In this document: piece after piece, positions 32,257 to 51,135 of the stretch
Layout: every line of letters begins with the position of its first letter
How positions within the stretch are numbered: the stretch's first letter is position 1
Origin: a bacterium
GTDB lineage: Bacteria > Patescibacteriota > Minisyncoccia > Phycocordibacterales > UBA918
Assembly (NCBI GenBank): GCA_043719295.1
Contig: JAYSUD010000001.1
Span: forward strand, 97,700-161,699
Direction of reading: 5' to 3'
DNA: 64,000 bases
Position numbers and translations under genes: made by a program
Notes under the pieces: generated by a model
What the model saw: only the letters and a program-made list of their open reading frames with translations
Databases searched by the model: none
Told to the model about the DNA's origin: nothing

Positions 32257-33159
32257 ATGGCACTCAAGCAAATTAAAAACAAAATAATCGCAACCCACAA
32301 AACGGGAAAAGTTACCAAGGCGATGGAGGCTGTTTCTGCGGTAAAGATGCGTAAGAGTCAGCAAAAAGCCTTCGTTGGACGTCCGTACGTACACTCTGCA
32401 ATGCGTATACTTTCTCGCCTCTCTGAGTCAAACGAAGGACTTTCACATCCATTCGCACAAAAAAAAGAAGTTGGTAAAGACTTACTGGTGATTGTAACAA
32501 GTGACAAGGGTCTTGCGGGAAGTGTAAACAGTGCTGTTTTGAAAAAAGCAGAAGCATTATTTTCTAAAGAAAATCAAATCGATACAATTTGTATTGGAAG
32601 AAAGGCAACAGAATTTGCTGCACGACAAAAGAAAGAAGTTCTTGCATCATTTGTTAACGTCAGTGACGATGTGTCACTTAGAGATGTGAACAAAATGGCA
32701 TCACTTATTATGGAAACCTTTACCACTTCGTCGTACAGTCATGTGTATGTTTTGTATCAAAACTTTATTTCAACTTTTGAACAAGAGCCAACACAACGAC
32801 AGATTCTTCCACTTGATCCTGCTGAAATCGGGTTCATTATGGAAGGGATTAAACCAAAAGAAGGAAAATGGAGTGATGATAAAGTGACTGCTGATTCAAA
32901 AATTATCTACACCATCGAGCCATCAACTGAAGAGGTTCTCAATACACTTATTCCCCAATTAGTGCAGATTATGTTGTACCATGCCCTTATTGAAAGTAAG
33001 GCATGTGAACATTCGGCTCGTATGGTTGCCATGAAGAATGCAACTGACAACTCAAAAGAGCTAGCAAAGTCACTAACCTTAAAGTTCAACAAAGCCCGAC
33101 AGGCGGCGATTACAGCTGAGGTAGCTGAAATAACCGGCGGAATGGAAGCAATGAAGTAA
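32257..33159 (+). CDS. atpG: F-type ATP synthase subunit gamma
   Basis: IKNKIIATHKTGKVTKAMEAVSAVKMRK N-terminal helix and C-terminal QAAITAEVAEITGG helix. Confidence 0.85.
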   Translation: MALKQIKNKIIATHKTGKVTKAMEAVSAVKMRKSQQKAFVGRPYVHSAMRILSRLSESNEGLSHPFAQKKEVGKDLLVIVTSDKGLAGSVNSAVLKKAEALFSKENQIDTICIGRKATEFAARQKKEVLASFVNVSDDVSLRDVNKMASLIMETFTTSSYSHVYVLYQNFISTFEQEPTQRQILPLDPAEIGFIMEGIKPKEGKWSDDKVTADSKIIYTIEPSTEEVLNTLIPQLVQIMLYHALIESKACEHSARMVAMKNATDNSKELAKSLTLKFNKARQAAITAEVAEITGGMEAMK

Positions 33160-33161
33160 AT

Positions 33162-33479
33162 ATGAAAAAAACTCTTAAAACAATAGTATTAGTTCTGAAC
33201 TCACTACTTATTGTTTTTTGCGTTTCTAGAGCAACTGATTCTATTAGATACTGGGGTACTGGAGGTGAAGATGTTGTTGGTGGTACATTCTATCAAATGA
33301 TAATTGTGTTATTAATATGGTTTTTACCAGCAACTATACTTGCATTCTATACATATAAATTTATTAGATCAGATTTAAGTAATAAAATGTACTTAAAATT
33401 TTTTGCTGTGCTGACACCACTATTTATCGTACTTTTTTTATCCATAAAATTTATGTTTTCTATGTCGGATACCTTTTAG
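33162..33479 (+). CDS. Small polytopic membrane protein inserted in the atp operon
   Basis: 105 aa, 3 TM. Very AT-rich codon usage compared with the flanking atp genes. Confidence 0.4.
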   Translation: MKKTLKTIVLVLNSLLIVFCVSRATDSIRYWGTGGEDVVGGTFYQMIIVLLIWFLPATILAFYTYKFIRSDLSNKMYLKFFAVLTPLFIVLFLSIKFMFSMSDTF

Positions 33480-33480
33480 T

Positions 33481-33535
33481 AGTACTTTTAAGTAATAAGT
33501 TTCTAAAGGAAATTTATTACTCAGTGGTACTGAGT
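33481..33535. repeat. REP-like double-hairpin repeat (copy 1)
   Basis: AGTACTTTTAAGTAATAAGTTTCTAAAGGAAATTTATTACTCAGTGGTACTGAGT: hairpins GTAATAAGTTT/AAATTTATTAC and ACTCAGT-GGT-ACTGAGT. Confidence 0.7.
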
Positions 33536-33542
33536 AAAATAC

Positions 33543-33890
33543 ATGGAATCGAAAATTAAATTTAAAAATGTGGACTATAACAAGACTTCTCAAAGTTTTT
33601 TAAATAATCCTATTTTGACATATCATTTTATTGCTCTTTCAGTAGCAAATTTAATTATATTTTTCTTGCTTTTCACTAGTATACTTGGATTAGTTATATT
33701 TTTCTTGTCAGGTATATTTTTAACCGTACTAGCACTGTCGTTATTGATTACAGTTGTAAGTTTGTCATTAATTTATTGTCAAAGAAAAAAATATATTCTT
33801 GGTTATATAACTTCAGGATCAATAATGGTTTTAGTTAATATATACATACTAATATTAATAATTAGGACTATTATCGAGTTATTTAAATAA
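33543..33890 (+). CDS. Small polytopic membrane protein inserted in the atp operon (second)
   Basis: 115 aa, 3 TM; flanked on both sides by the 55-bp REP-like repeat. Confidence 0.4.
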   Translation: MESKIKFKNVDYNKTSQSFLNNPILTYHFIALSVANLIIFFLLFTSILGLVIFFLSGIFLTVLALSLLITVVSLSLIYCQRKKYILGYITSGSIMVLVNIYILILIIRTIIELFK

Positions 33891-33897
33891 TGCATGT

Positions 33898-33955
33898 AGT
33901 ACTTAGTAATAAGTTCCTAAAGGGAATTTATTACTCAGTGGTACTGAGTTTCAAA
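33898..33955. repeat. REP-like double-hairpin repeat (copy 2)
   Basis: AGTACTTAGTAATAAGTTCCTAAAGGGAATTTATTACTCAGTGGTACTGAGTTTCAAAC; ~90% identical to copy 1. Confidence 0.7.
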
Positions 33956-33997
33956 CAAAAAATTATTAACGACTATTTACTAACAGCTAATTACTAA

Positions 33998-35371
<1,374 letters not shown>

Positions 35372-35377
35372 TTGTTT

Positions 35378-35587
35378 ATGGTTACGCGTAAAAAGGCTGT
35401 AGTGTGTCTATTTAGCATTAGTATTATATATCTCATTGTGTTGGTGTTAAGTAACTACAGTGGATGTGGCTTTTGTTTTTCTGGAAACTGCACATGTAAA
35501 TGTTACGGTATTGATGTTGAATCAGGCTTTCTTGGATTCCAAAGTGGATGTATAGGACCTAGTGAAAGTATTGAACAGAAAATCTAA
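35378..35587 (+). CDS. Small TM plus Cys-rich protein inserted between atpD and atpC
   Basis: MVTRKKAVVCLFSISIIYLIVLVLSNYSGCGFCFSGNCTCKCYGID...: 9 Cys in 69 aa. The listed ORF uses an upstream TTG. Confidence 0.3.
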   Translation: MVTRKKAVVCLFSISIIYLIVLVLSNYSGCGFCFSGNCTCKCYGIDVESGFLGFQSGCIGPSESIEQKI

Positions 35588-35899: not shown

Positions 35900-36559
35900 G
35901 TTTGAAACTCAGTCCGAGGTCGGACCTCGTACTGAGTTCGTCAATCAAACGATAATCTTAGTTCCTTAATGATCTCAACAATTTCTGACATGTCATTATA
36001 GGTCATGTTATCCGAGGTCCAACCTCGGATTATGTCTGATTCTTGGTTTAATTTACTTCTATACAATTTTGAATCTGAGATATTGTGTATTTGAAAGTTA
36101 TTTGTAACATAAGAAACGACTTGTCTTAGGTCTTGGTCACTTGGAATGTATTTTGATTTAAATTTACCCTGGAATAACACTCCTGAGCGTTTGTACTTTT
36201 TATTGAAATACATTGTATAACCAACTCCGACGCGTTTCATGAAATATGAAATGCCATTTTCGACTAATTCTTTTAAAACTAAATGATAATGATTTGGTAA
36301 TATGCAATATGAAACTATCTCGACAACTTTCTCGTCGCTCATATCAGCTGGATATAGATGAAGCTTCCCTCGTATTATCTTTGAATTGTATGCTCTAAGT
36401 GAGCTTAAAAAATAACTGTAGTCTTGAGGGTCGTTGAAAATAACCCTCTTCTCAGTACCTCTGTTGTAGCAGTGATAGTACTCATCAATTTCAAACGCAT
36501 GGTTTCTGCTTGCCATATAGTAAATATACAATAAGTCCGAGGTCGGATCTCGGACTTAT
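35900..36559. mobile_element. RAYT-REP unit: IS200/IS605-like HuH Y1 transposase gene flanked by REP-like palindromes
   Basis: 3' flank GTTTGAAACTCAGT-CCGAGGTCGGACCTCG-TACTGAGTT (35900..35938). 5' flank ATAAGTCCGAG-GTCGGAT-CTCGGACTTAT (36531..36559). A third CCGAGGTCCAACCTCGG hairpin lies inside the coding region at 36006..36030. Confidence 0.7.
35941..36516 (-). CDS. REP-associated tyrosine transposase (RAYT; IS200-like TnpA, HuH Y1 family)
   Basis: HuH motif ILPNHYHLVL. YTMYFNKKYKRSGVLFQGKFKSKYIPSDQDLRQVVSYVTNN aligns with TnpA_REP-type YVRYINRKYGRTGHLWEGRYKS...Y-I-NP. Start taken at ATG 36514; the listed ORF starts at a TTG. Confidence 0.7.
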   Translation of the reverse strand: MASRNHAFEIDEYYHCYNRGTEKRVIFNDPQDYSYFLSSLRAYNSKIIRGKLHLYPADMSDEKVVEIVSYCILPNHYHLVLKELVENGISYFMKRVGVGYTMYFNKKYKRSGVLFQGKFKSKYIPSDQDLRQVVSYVTNNFQIHNISDSKLYRSKLNQESDIIRGWTSDNMTYNDMSEIVEIIKELRLSFD

Positions 36560-48324: not shown

Positions 48325-51135
48325 ATGCATAAAAAATTTGATAATAAGGAGATTGAAGCTCGATGGCAGGAGATCTGGAAAGAAAGTGGTATCTATGATG
48401 TGGGAGAACGCGATACCAAAAAAGAGAAGGAATATATCCTTGTTGAGTGGCCATACCCCTCTGGTAACCTCCATATTGGTCACTGGCATGCGTTTGCAGT
48501 GCCTGACATCTATGCGCGCTTCCGCCGCATGAACGGGGTGCAAGTACTCTATCCAATGGGTTTTGACGCATTTGGGCTTCCTGCTGAGAACGCTGCAATC
48601 AAAAGAAATACAAGTCCAAAAGAATGGACAGAAGGCAATATTGTGTTTATGCGCAACCAGCTTAACAGTATGGGTGCCTCATTCTCGTGGGACAAAACAA
48701 CAAGTTCAACAGACCCAAGTTACTACAAATGGACACAGTGGATGTTTACCGAATTCTTTAAGAAAGATATTGCCTACCGTGGTAAGGGAATTGTAAATTG
48801 GTGCCCTGGATGCAATACCGTTATCGCAAATGAGCAGGTTCTTGCCGATGGAACCTGCGAACGTTCAGGAGACATGATTGAGAAGAAAGAAATGCCTCAG
48901 TGGATGTTACGGATTACGCAATATGCAGACAGACTTATTGATGACCTTGATGGACTCAATTGGCCAGAGCAAATTAAAGACGCACAACGAAACTGGATAG
49001 GGCGGTCACAAGGTGCAGAACTAACCTTTAAAATTTCAACAGGAGACGAAGTAACAGTCTTCACAACAAGACCCGACACACTCTATGGAGCTACCTACCT
49101 TGTCCTTGCCCCGGAACACCCCCTCATAGAAAAGGTATGGGGTGGGACCTCGAACAATGAAGAGATTGGAGTCTATGTGCATGCTTCAAAACAAAAGGCG
49201 GAGCAAGATAGACTTGATGCAACCAAAGAGAAGACAGGGGTGAAACTTGAGGGGATTACTGCGATTAACCCAGCATCAGGGGAAGAAATCCCGGTCTATA
49301 TTGCAGACTACGTACTTGGAGGATATGGAACAGGAGCAATTATGGCAGTACCAGCGCACGACGAACGAGATTTTGCATTTGCTACAAAGTTTGGACTACC
49401 GATAACACAAGTTGTACGTAAGGTATTTGGAACACCACTTTCGAATCCTGTGACAAGAAAAGCAGTAGGTTCGATAGTACATAATCCAAAAACAAATTTA
49501 TATTTAATTCAGCATAGTCACGAATTTAAAAATCATTCTTTCATATTCGGAGGTCTTGAAGCAAACGAAACGTATGAAGAAGCGGCAATTCGTGAGACAA
49601 AAGAAGAGACCGGATACGACACGAAGTTCGTTAAGTTTATAACTCAAGAAACCGAAGCACATTTTTATCACCCTGGAAAAAATGAAAATAGGACACTCAC
49701 TAGTCGACGAGTACTCTTAGAACTTGTTTCTGATGCTTCGTCTACTGTTGGTGTAGAAGAACTTAAAAAACAAGAACCGGTTTGGTTGACCTATGATGAA
49801 ATTTGTAAAAAATTCACTATAGAAGAAGATCTGTACGCAATTGCACAACTTCGTGAATCAAAACTATACACAGGAGTAGGAACACTCTATAACTCAGGAG
49901 AATTTGATGGGATGGATTCAGAAGAAGCTAAAGAAAAAATTGTTGCTAAGGTTGGAGGGAAGATGACTAATACGTATCGACTTCGTGACTGGTCTATTGG
50001 ACGTCAGCGATACTGGGGCGTACCAATTCCAATTGTGTATGACCCGCAAGGTGTTGCACATCCTGTCCCAAAAGAACACTTACCTTGGTTGTTGCCTGAG
50101 GATGTTGATTTTAGACCTACAGGTGTTGCTCCTCTTACAAAAAGTGAAGAGCTCAAAAAGAGAACAGTAGAAATCTTTGGAGAAGGATGGACACCTGAAG
50201 TTGAAACTATGGATACGTTTGTAGATTCCTCATGGTACTTTTTGCGCTACTTAGACAACCAAAACAATGGTGAACTTTCCTCGTCTATGAAACAAAAAGA
50301 ATGGATGCCTGTTGACATCTACTTTGGAGGCGCTGAACACACAACAATGCACCTTCTCTATTCACGTTTCTGGCAGAAAGCGCTATTTGACCTCGGTTTA
50401 GTTCAAGATAGCGAACCATACAAGAAGCGCATCAATCGTGGGCTCATCTTGGGCCCTGACGGTAACAAGATGAGTAAGAGTAAAGGGAACGTTATTGATC
50501 CTGATGATCACGTTAAAACAGTGGGTGCTGATTGTGTAAAAATGTACCTCTCGTTTATGGGGCCATACGGAGAGACAGCAAACTATCCATGGGATATGGG
50601 AGGTATTGTTGGTGTCCGCCGATTCCTCGAGCGTGTATACGGACTTGATACGCATATCACAGAATCTGAGAGTGAAGAAGTAACGCGTCAACTCCACAAA
50701 ACTATCTCGAAGTTAGAGAACGATGTCCCACTCTATAAATTCAACACCGCGATAAGTGCGATGATGATTTATATTAATCTTGTTGAAAAAGACGGATTAA
50801 CACTTGAATCGTATCTAGTATTCTTGCGTCTACTTGCGCCATTTGCTCCACACCTTACAGAAGAACTGTGGGCCATTCAAGGTAAAATAACTTCAATTCA
50901 TCTTGAATCGTATCCAAAATCAAATCCACTTTATGTTGTAGATACAAAGGTGACTATTGCTGTCCAAGTTAATGGAAAAATGCGTGGAAGTATTGTTGTG
51001 CAAAAAGATGCAGATGAATCTTTTATCTTGAATAGAGCTACAGAAACAGAAACGATAGCAAAATACCTCACAAACGGAGTTACGCGACACATTTACGTCC
51101 CAAACAAAATTATCAACATTATGACTAACGTATAA
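48325..51135 (+). CDS. leuS: Leucyl-tRNA synthetase with an inserted Nudix hydrolase domain
   Basis: HIGH: YPSGNLHIGHWHAF. Editing-domain markers TTRPDTLYGATYLVLAPEHP and GTGAIMAVPAHDERDFAFATKFGLPI. KMSKS: KMSKSKGN. Residues ~365-515 hold the Nudix box GGLEANETYEEAAIRETKEETGY. Confidence 0.9.
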   Translation: MHKKFDNKEIEARWQEIWKESGIYDVGERDTKKEKEYILVEWPYPSGNLHIGHWHAFAVPDIYARFRRMNGVQVLYPMGFDAFGLPAENAAIKRNTSPKEWTEGNIVFMRNQLNSMGASFSWDKTTSSTDPSYYKWTQWMFTEFFKKDIAYRGKGIVNWCPGCNTVIANEQVLADGTCERSGDMIEKKEMPQWMLRITQYADRLIDDLDGLNWPEQIKDAQRNWIGRSQGAELTFKISTGDEVTVFTTRPDTLYGATYLVLAPEHPLIEKVWGGTSNNEEIGVYVHASKQKAEQDRLDATKEKTGVKLEGITAINPASGEEIPVYIADYVLGGYGTGAIMAVPAHDERDFAFATKFGLPITQVVRKVFGTPLSNPVTRKAVGSIVHNPKTNLYLIQHSHEFKNHSFIFGGLEANETYEEAAIRETKEETGYDTKFVKFITQETEAHFYHPGKNENRTLTSRRVLLELVSDASSTVGVEELKKQEPVWLTYDEICKKFTIEEDLYAIAQLRESKLYTGVGTLYNSGEFDGMDSEEAKEKIVAKVGGKMTNTYRLRDWSIGRQRYWGVPIPIVYDPQGVAHPVPKEHLPWLLPEDVDFRPTGVAPLTKSEELKKRTVEIFGEGWTPEVETMDTFVDSSWYFLRYLDNQNNGELSSSMKQKEWMPVDIYFGGAEHTTMHLLYSRFWQKALFDLGLVQDSEPYKKRINRGLILGPDGNKMSKSKGNVIDPDDHVKTVGADCVKMYLSFMGPYGETANYPWDMGGIVGVRRFLERVYGLDTHITESESEEVTRQLHKTISKLENDVPLYKFNTAISAMMIYINLVEKDGLTLESYLVFLRLLAPFAPHLTEELWAIQGKITSIHLESYPKSNPLYVVDTKVTIAVQVNGKMRGSIVVQKDADESFILNRATETETIAKYLTNGVTRHIYVPNKIINIMTNV

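Follow-up and report, generated by a model that had tools for sequence, protein, structure and literature searches.

REP-associated tyrosine transposases (RAYTs), which live with their own populations of repetitive extragenic palindromic (REP) elements, provide the textbook example of a domesticated transposase. To our knowledge, nearly all characterised RAYT/REP systems come from Proteobacteria, Cyanobacteria, and Bacteroidetes. Here, we examined a 64-kb stretch of contig JAYSUD010000001.1 (hereafter the window) from a bacterium of the Candidate Phyla Radiation (CPR) that is Paceibacteria-like, and which carries a gene for a RAYT-like protein of the TnpA_Y1 family. We consider it likely that this is a vertically inherited gene for a Y1/HUH endonuclease acting on single-stranded DNA (ssDNA), packaged with three cognate hairpins as a REPtron-like unit and present in one copy in the window.

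The TnpA_Y1 proteins have been divided into 12 subclasses (Quentin et al. 2018, PMC6006769), and in-frame REPs inside the tnpAREP gene were described as unique to subclass 2.4, where they lie between the HuH motif and the catalytic tyrosine (PMC6006769). The text of that study makes no mention of Parcubacteria or CPR genomes, and no description of the present clade, nor any paper connecting RAYTs with CPR bacteria, was found in the literature on RAYT/TnpAREP with CPR taxa, a survey whose coverage is incomplete and which is no proof of novelty. Repeat counts are low, at 12-14, for RAYT groups 1 and 4 (14 for group 4; Bertels et al. 2017, PMC5581495), so a low-copy association has precedent. The active site of Escherichia coli TnpA_REP is formed by H59/H61, Y115, N119, and H123 (Messing et al., PMC3479197).

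The Y1/HUH gene and its three hairpins

The RAYT-like TnpA_Y1 gene occupies positions 35941..36516 of the minus strand and is accompanied by three copies of one palindrome. The upstream hairpin, U, spans 36531..36559 with its core at 36535-36555 (GTCCGAGGTCGGATCTCGGAC; free energy of folding, dG, ~-10.5, z ~-6.3), and its full stem ATAAGTCCGAG/CTCGGACTTAT consists of 11 perfect pairs and one G.T pair at the stem top. The second hairpin, I2, lies in frame within the coding sequence at 36010..36030 (ATCCGAGGTCCAACCTCGGAT), where it encodes I-R-G-W-T-S-D (residues 163-169). The post-stop hairpin, D, spans 35905..35938 with its core at 35912-35932 (GTCCGAGGTCGGACCTCGTAC, one C.T mismatch) and starts 8 nt past the stop codon; with its outer arms AACTCAGT/ACTGAGTT it forms a 14-bp stem with one mismatch (dG -12.6/-14.6). 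A first-pass annotation of this DNA had reported palindromes on both sides of the gene and another inside its coding sequence, and all of them were recovered where it had placed them.

As ssDNA, each of the three copies folds stably into a hairpin whichever strand is taken (dG -9.2 to -14.6 kcal/mol, z -4.3 to -6.5), and 0/200 shuffles were as good. The 15-nt core CGAGGTYSRAYCTCG has 3 sites only in 64 kb, against an expectation of 0.01 from shuffled sequence, and a search for the 21-mer with <=3 mismatches returned the 3 gene-associated sites only, with 0 expected. The corresponding 23-nt repeat is present in three copies in all, at 35911-33, 36009-31, and 36534-56. The core of U ends ~18 nt 5' of the ATG and is followed by an A/T-rich, -10-like stretch, TGTATATTTACTAT (36517-36530), and then by the ATG itself. 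No Rfam family was detected between positions 33000 and 37500 of the window.

The gene encodes 191 aa followed by a stop. Its ATG at 36516 matches the start of the homologs, all of which begin with MA[SN]R; an alternative in-frame TTG start at 36531, giving 196 aa, falls within the U hairpin. The reading frame is full-length relative to the homologs, and its translation includes the ILPNHYHLVL motif as well as YTMYFNKKYKRSGVLFQGKFKSKY / GVLFQGKFKSKY. A word-indexed search returned 512 homologs at E<=1e-3, typically 190-200 aa long; those that are named come from Candidatus Paceibacteria, and the JGI label is a generic 'RayT'. In an exhaustive profile search, 13,241 clusters (50% identity) scored E<=1e-10, of which 1069 reached E<=1e-30. 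One tblastn match of the C-terminal part elsewhere in the window (49363-49446, E 0.43) was set aside as noise; it lies inside a 936-aa open reading frame (ORF) that has no hairpin.

The minus-strand ORF with a HuH motif that the first-pass annotation had described was confirmed by the hidden Markov model of the Pfam family Y1_Tnp (PF01797), which matched residues 48-140 with 34.2 bits, above its gathering score of 23. The HUH motif is encoded by CAT TAT CAT (H76-Y77-H78) at 36283..36291 of the minus strand, and H76/H78 align to H59/H61 of TnpA_REP. The codons of the catalytic helix lie at 36085..36111 on the same strand (Y136 at 36109-11, N140 at 36097-99, and H144 at 36085-87), with a +4/+8 spacing that is identical to that of Y115/N119/H123 in TnpA_REP. 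Twelve positions were invariant in a 27-sequence alignment (A1): H76, H78, G112, L114, F115, Q116, G117, F119, K120, Y136, N140, and H144. It had been suspected earlier that a catalytic tyrosine was replaced by phenylalanine at GKFKS. Because phenylalanine is the family norm there, the aligned E. coli residue is also phenylalanine (QPRF), and the catalytic Y115 corresponds to the intact, invariant Y136, that suspicion was a mis-assignment.

A single-sequence search of PDB sequences with the window protein returned no match, and the family profile matched only one PDB sequence, 4ER8, which is E. coli TnpA_REP (E 0.059). The hhalign alignment with 4ER8 pairs PNHYH with PEHMH, LFQGKF with IWQPRF, and AYVxxN with DYIYIN. 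The AlphaFold2 model (pLDDT 82.9, pTM 0.82) has 4er8_A as its best Foldseek match in the PDB (E 7.8e-6, TM 0.50/0.56), followed by the TnpA proteins of IS608, IS200, and ISDra2. Residues ~45-64 of the model form a low-confidence loop (block pLDDT 55), the variable linker that precedes the HUH strand. From its motifs and its modelled fold, the protein is assigned to the Y1/HUH proteins of the RAYT-like branch, with a complete active site of the TnpA_REP type.

Inheritance and hairpin sequence among relatives

We sought the same arrangement in other genomes. The ATP synthase operon ends next to the Y1 gene, which is convergent with atpC, with 83 nt between the two stop codons. The order of a 170-190-aa membrane protein gene, Y1, and atpC, with Y1 convergent on atpC, was found in the window and in L001, L113, L114, L115, and L116 (loci are numbered with the prefix L). 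The atpC-linked Y1 proteins of these six genomes share 54-66% identity, and between the window and L001 the Y1 protein is 64% identical and its neighbours 65-87%. This position, kept at such divergence in six genomes, argues that the gene is vertically inherited and not an active insertion sequence. In a second lineage (L002/L004), the gene lies between uvrB and tgt, with 67% identity for Y1 and 41-76% for its neighbours. The tgt-uvrB junction of the present genome (L111 1-510, ~5 kb upstream of window position 1) has no Y1 gene; a short ORF and a hairpin that is GC-rich and terminator-like are all that it holds. There is at least one relocation, or differential loss of paralogs, deep in the tree.

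Ten close relatives (50-66% identity to the window protein) were compared: L001, L002, L004, L031-L033, and L113-L116. Most of them share the three-hairpin layout of U, I2, and D, with U ~35-55 nt 5' of the ATG, I2 in frame at ~codons 163-169, and D at or just past the stop. The I2 station holds the locus's own hairpin in L001, L002, L004, L031, L033, L113, L114, and L116, while that copy has decayed in L032 and L115 has lost it. In L002, L004, L032, and L033, D forms the C-terminal codons (e.g. S-S-R-K-D-L-E-L), and the stop codon directly follows D in L002, L004, and L032.

The hairpin sequence co-varies with its Y1 gene among these relatives and differs from locus to locus. The stem is GTTCGAGG/CCTCGAAC in L001, L002, L004, and L113, GTCCGAGG/CCTCGGAC in the window and L116, and GTACGAG/CTCGTAC in L031 and L032. 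One stem position (pair 5-21) is T:A, C:G, or A:T and changes in concert among the copies within a genome. In an alignment of 21 hairpins (A2), 89.5% of cells were paired, and the covariation score was reached by 0/500 shuffles. The loops are also genome-specific, with TCTAA, TCTAA, and an inverted TTAGA in L001 and TCTTT, TCTTT, and AAAGA in L002. The three copies of L114 share the sequence GAGATTTCGACTC, and its internal peptide is V-R-D-F-D-S-N in place of V-R-G-L-x-S. Since a change of hairpin alters the encoded peptide, the 'conserved' internal peptide is a read-out of the DNA structure, and not the reverse.

The identical 21-nt palindrome of the window (GTCCGAGGTCGGACCTCGGAC), with AATTG/CAATT extensions, was encountered in Parcubacteria LiPW_41 (VMEM01; L010/L028/L029), at +170 inside and just 3' of a Y1 gene that is only 34% identical to the window's. 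Because closer relatives use GTTCGAGG, the hairpin sequence does not simply track the protein phylogeny. Two or three distantly related Y1 paralogs lie within 20 kb of each other in L045, L047, L077, and L085; these co-resident paralogs match the query at 33-46% only, and the hairpin, where one was detected, differs from paralog to paralog (in L045, TGTCAAGG versus CTTGGTAC).

To the earlier loci we added 80 metagenomic loci with more distant relatives (37-58% identity), for a total of 92 Y1 genes, and applied a detector of recurrent hairpins (perfect stems of >=7 bp, with two or more copies at the gene). Such a hairpin, specific to its locus, was found at 59/92 Y1 genes, a conservative figure since the detector misses the window itself, whose copies are mismatched. 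The stem sequences are unrelated between loci and include CTTGGAGG, CAGCGGT, GATAGGGG, and TGTGGGGA, among others. The copies fall at four stations: U (58 copies; median -37.5 from the ATG; 58/58 hairpin-positive related loci), I1 (28 copies; median +182, in the variable linker that leads to the HUH strand), I2 (24 copies; median +456), and D (55 copies; median +5 from the stop). These occur as U+I1+D at 16 loci, U+I2+D at 15, U+D at 12, and U+I1+I2+D at 5.

An extended -10 box (TGnTAnnnT) was found within 16 nt 3' of U at 26/58 loci, compared with 1/127 other copies, and the box ends 0-14 nt from the aligned start. With the box abutting U and lying so close to the start, the mRNAs are presumed to be leaderless or near-leaderless, leaving U untranscribed and in the -35/spacer region. 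For the window, a promoter next to U is inferred from this family-wide element.

Copies of the hairpin were also encountered away from the gene. LiPW_41 carries solo palindrome copies on the same contig and on another (L028, L029), and the solo copy of L012 precedes an A-run and a T-run, in that order. In a metagenome-assembled genome (MAG) of Saccharibacteria, three tandem palindrome cores CCGAGGTYSRACCTCGG lie in frame in a cysteine desulfurase gene (L022 377-463, CAYJVW010000044.1). The resulting insertion comprises 29 residues, TTCPRFDLGHRGRTSDSFGYRGPTSDSLY (query 111-139), where solved homologs have 2 residues (e.g. 9wep). In the same MAG, two adjacent in-frame hairpins lie within an 877-aa P-type ATPase ORF and encode ...DSEVKPRSPRSDLGS... 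(L026 5650-5695, CAYJVW010000003.1); no Y1 gene was found in that 8-kb locus. From such distal and in-frame copies in relatives, the hairpin appears to be mobile at low frequency and is not a high-copy REP. A contig scan of other genomes with GTCCGAGGTCGGAYCTCG, in which the window's genome was not included, gave mainly chance matches from high-GC genomes (~16/24 loci).

Taken across the family, the CPR proteins may form a distinct, undescribed TnpA_Y1 subclass, a suggestion that we hold tentatively. Its substrate hairpin would be built in at up to four stations (the promoter, codons ~57-65, codons ~150-170, and the stop), with copies changing in concert and the DNA structure dictating the peptides; in-frame landing in housekeeping genes would also be possible. 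If this is true, such a self-contained unit would let a nuclease sense or regulate its own gene, and the hairpins would be one source of the unexplained protein insertions that are typical of CPR genomes.

Proposed mechanism and alternative explanations

By analogy with TnpA_REP and the TnpA proteins of IS200/IS605, the enzyme would bind the stem-loops when the DNA is single-stranded. As in TnpA_REP and IS608 TnpA, Y136 would form a 5'-phosphotyrosine through which the DNA would be cleaved and rejoined beside the hairpins, an activity that would keep the copies homogenised and occasionally seed new ones at low copy number. In this proposal, concerted evolution and occasional new copies arise because the enzyme cleaves and rejoins at hairpins. 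U, from its place in the -35/spacer region of a leaderless promoter, would be a site acting at the DNA level, probably for autoregulation and/or for blocking read-in transcription. For the convergent atpC and Y1 transcripts, D is probably a shared 3' end structure. I2 would encode a tolerated passenger peptide, acceptable because this internal copy lies outside the catalytic core.

Several observations weigh against a REPtron-like unit of this kind. The contact between protein and hairpin is a prediction. The name of REP-associated transposase, given by the first-pass annotation, holds as far as RAYT-like, with 4ER8 as the best fold match and the only profile match. It does not extend to the NCBIfam RAYT equivalog NF047646 (REP_Tyr_transpos), where the protein scored 34.8 bits and did not reach the cutoff of 80, nor to the GT[AG]G foot, which is absent at the window hairpins. 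The feet there read AAGT(C/T/A)CGAGG, and those in the wider family are mostly (C)ACTTGG... and likewise have no GT[AG]G. The class-2 tyrosine motif is Y---NP, and residue 141, after Y136---N140, is variable and not proline. A consensus promoter scan upstream of the window gene returned no canonical sigma-70 site.

The repeats themselves raise further objections. Dispersed REP status, as first supposed, was not borne out: in the ~72 kb of this genome that was examined (the 64-kb window plus 5.6 kb in L111 and 2.3 kb in L112), no palindrome was found away from the gene even with 2 mismatches, and the relatives contained 7 copies >1 kb from the gene in 362 kb. The large population of dispersed repeats by which REP/RAYT systems are recognised is therefore absent or weak. 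When REPIN-like inverted pairs were checked, the loop orientation among copies was heterogeneous across loci and followed no single rule, and the segment from I2 to D in the window folds into two local hairpins, not into the one long hairpin of a REP doublet (REPIN) that the first-pass annotation had asked about. The G.T wobbles that might identify the folding strand (4 sense versus 8 antisense) are too few to decide. Overall, we regard the protein as a member of the Y1_Tnp superfamily that would work in a RAYT/REPtron-like manner, not as an equivalog of canonical RAYT, and plausibly as a new subclass.

Among the alternatives, it is unlikely that the hairpins are ordinary transcription or RNA elements (terminators, mRNA stabilisers, or the operator of another regulator) that are unrelated to Y1 catalysis. 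The place of D between two convergent stops, the terminator-like score of U, and the A-run and T-run after the solo copy in L012 would all suit such elements, and REPs in general are reported to influence mRNA stability and termination (PMC3733652). However, one and the same sequence recurs 5' of a -10 box, out of reach of transcription from the gene's own promoter, within the coding sequence, and after the stop. The D copies of related loci are mostly without a T-tract, and in-frame copies occur within unrelated genes too. The hairpin is furthermore particular to its Y1 ortholog or paralog and changes together with it, which would not be expected of a generic terminator.

The second alternative is an active IS200-like insertion sequence, in which the ~650-bp unit from U to D would be the transposon and U and D its subterminal left and right ends. 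IS200 is ~0.7 kb long, with one Y1 gene and subterminal hairpins of which the left-end hairpin is terminator-like. The unit resembles IS200 in these features, including the terminator-like score of U at the corresponding end. The use of a different site (uvrB-tgt) in another lineage, with that junction empty in the present genome, and the 2-3 paralogs on some contigs (L045, L047, L077, and L085) could also be read as mobility. This explanation nevertheless seems quite improbable. The window holds a single copy, and the gene has the identical position in six genomes with flanks that are as diverged as the protein itself. The same-contig paralogs are distantly related, each with a different hairpin. 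The active-site helix reads Y---N---H as in TnpA_REP, and not the Y---Q of IS200/IS605, and an NCBIfam scan of the protein returned no IS200/IS605 model at E<=1.

It is very improbable that the gene is a decayed, catalytically dead relic with fossil palindromes, a view that could draw on the phenylalanine of GKFKS, where some Y1 relatives have tyrosine, the one stem mismatch of D, and the G.T wobble of U, but which is refuted by the alignment (F119 in 27/27 aligned homologs and likewise phenylalanine in E. coli TnpA_REP; the true catalytic Y136 and all metal ligands invariant) and is at odds with the full-length ORF and the confident model.

Apart from the vertically inherited nuclease gene with its cognate hairpins, other repeats and small ORFs were noted in the adjoining ATP synthase operon. 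Two copies (89% identical) of a 54-nt long-hairpin element lie at 33482-33535 and 33896-33949 (RNA dG -20.5/-23.9, z ~-5), and they differ by a compensatory change, TTTC/GAAA versus TTCC/GGAA. Each directly follows the 3' end of a small membrane-protein ORF (33162-33479, 105 aa; 33543-33890, 115 aa) between atpG and atpD, whereas in relatives such as L114 atpG and atpD are adjacent without those two ORFs. A 71-aa, Cys-rich ORF (…CGFCFSGNCTCKCYG…) was also noted at 35372-35587, in the 240-nt gap between atpD and atpC; in relatives this gap holds a 42-aa ORF (L001), a 215-aa ORF (L113), or none.

The outer hairpin of D had been described as an inverted relative of these operon repeats, and this was upheld: GTTTGAAACTCAGT at 35900-13 matches 33943-56 perfectly in inverted orientation, where the second 54-nt repeat has its 3' end. 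Over the outer arms and flank of D (35900-35938), ACTCAGT...ACTGAGTTTCAAAC compares with ACTCAGT-GGT-ACTGAGTTTCAAAC at 33932-33956, so that 7+14 nt are identical in inverted genomic orientation. It would seem that the 54-nt element carries a D hairpin minus its core, or that D gained those arms. The outer arms of D in syntenic relatives differ from the window's. The further idea that the palindrome was inserted into the loop of the outer hairpin is unlikely as it was put, the post-stop position of this copy being ancestral in the family.

Comparison with described Y1 systems and implications

The locus and its relatives present a compact version of the RAYT/REP system in genome-reduced CPR bacteria, with a repeat population that has shrunk almost to the gene itself. 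With a hairpin that overlaps the promoter and another that is translated through, they provide a natural test bed for the co-evolution of a Y1 nuclease with its hairpin, for whether the upstream copy autoregulates, and for whether hairpins give rise to in-frame insertions in the proteins of the host. For annotation, it follows that the 'RayT' labels on CPR genes rest on fold and not on a demonstrated REP population, and that the phenylalanine in LFQGxFK is normal for the family.

The protein was filed as a RAYT-like variant because of the comparison of its motifs (NHYH, FQ, and YVTNNF), its hairpins, and the literature with the known TnpA_Y1 subclasses. IS200/IS605 TnpA shares with it the Pfam family, the fold, and a ~0.7-kb unit with subterminal hairpins, of which the upstream one possibly blocks read-in transcription. 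The features particular to IS200/IS605, namely Y---Q, multiple near-identical copies, and horizontal mobility, were not seen here. Subclass 2.1 (Bertels group 1, 'TIRYT'-like) has the NH[YF]H and FQ variants in common with the window protein, and is set apart by a median length of 238 aa, a C-terminal helix-turn-helix/DnaA-like tail, a Y[IV]HLNP motif, and the lack of associated hairpins.

Subclass 2.4 (Bertels group 4; Cyanobacteria/Bacteroidetes) resembles the present family in carrying REPs within the gene without a break of frame, in its median length of 194 aa, in its NHxH motif, and in its low-copy flanking repeats. The hairpins described here instead lie before the HuH motif (I1, ~+182) or after the tyrosine helix (I2, ~+456; residues 163-169 in the window). 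Subclass 2.4 is also characterised by WQ, YIxNNP, and long or 'double-foot' GT[AG]G REPs, where the window has FQ, YVTNNF, and no GT[AG]G.

The E. coli TnpA_REP/RAYT REPtron (4ER8; TnpA_Y1 subclass 2.2) shares with the window protein the HUH motif and a single tyrosine on the next helix with Asn(+4) and His(+8). It is the best fold match and has phenylalanine at the position that was questioned earlier. Like the single copy in the window, it is a single-copy, vertically inherited gene flanked by cognate stem-loops, some of them inverted. The window protein is ~14% identical to it and far under the curated equivalog cutoff, and differs in having FQ for WQ/WE and no proline after Y---N. The hairpins here have no GTAG foot; they are short, near-perfect stems of 8-14 bp with ~5-nt loops, low-copy or locus-restricted as opposed to hundreds of copies, and are also found within the coding sequence and at the promoter. 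Against these systems, the domesticated Y1 gene of this locus looks ordinary in itself, while the family-wide architecture is apparently an undescribed elaboration of the RAYT.

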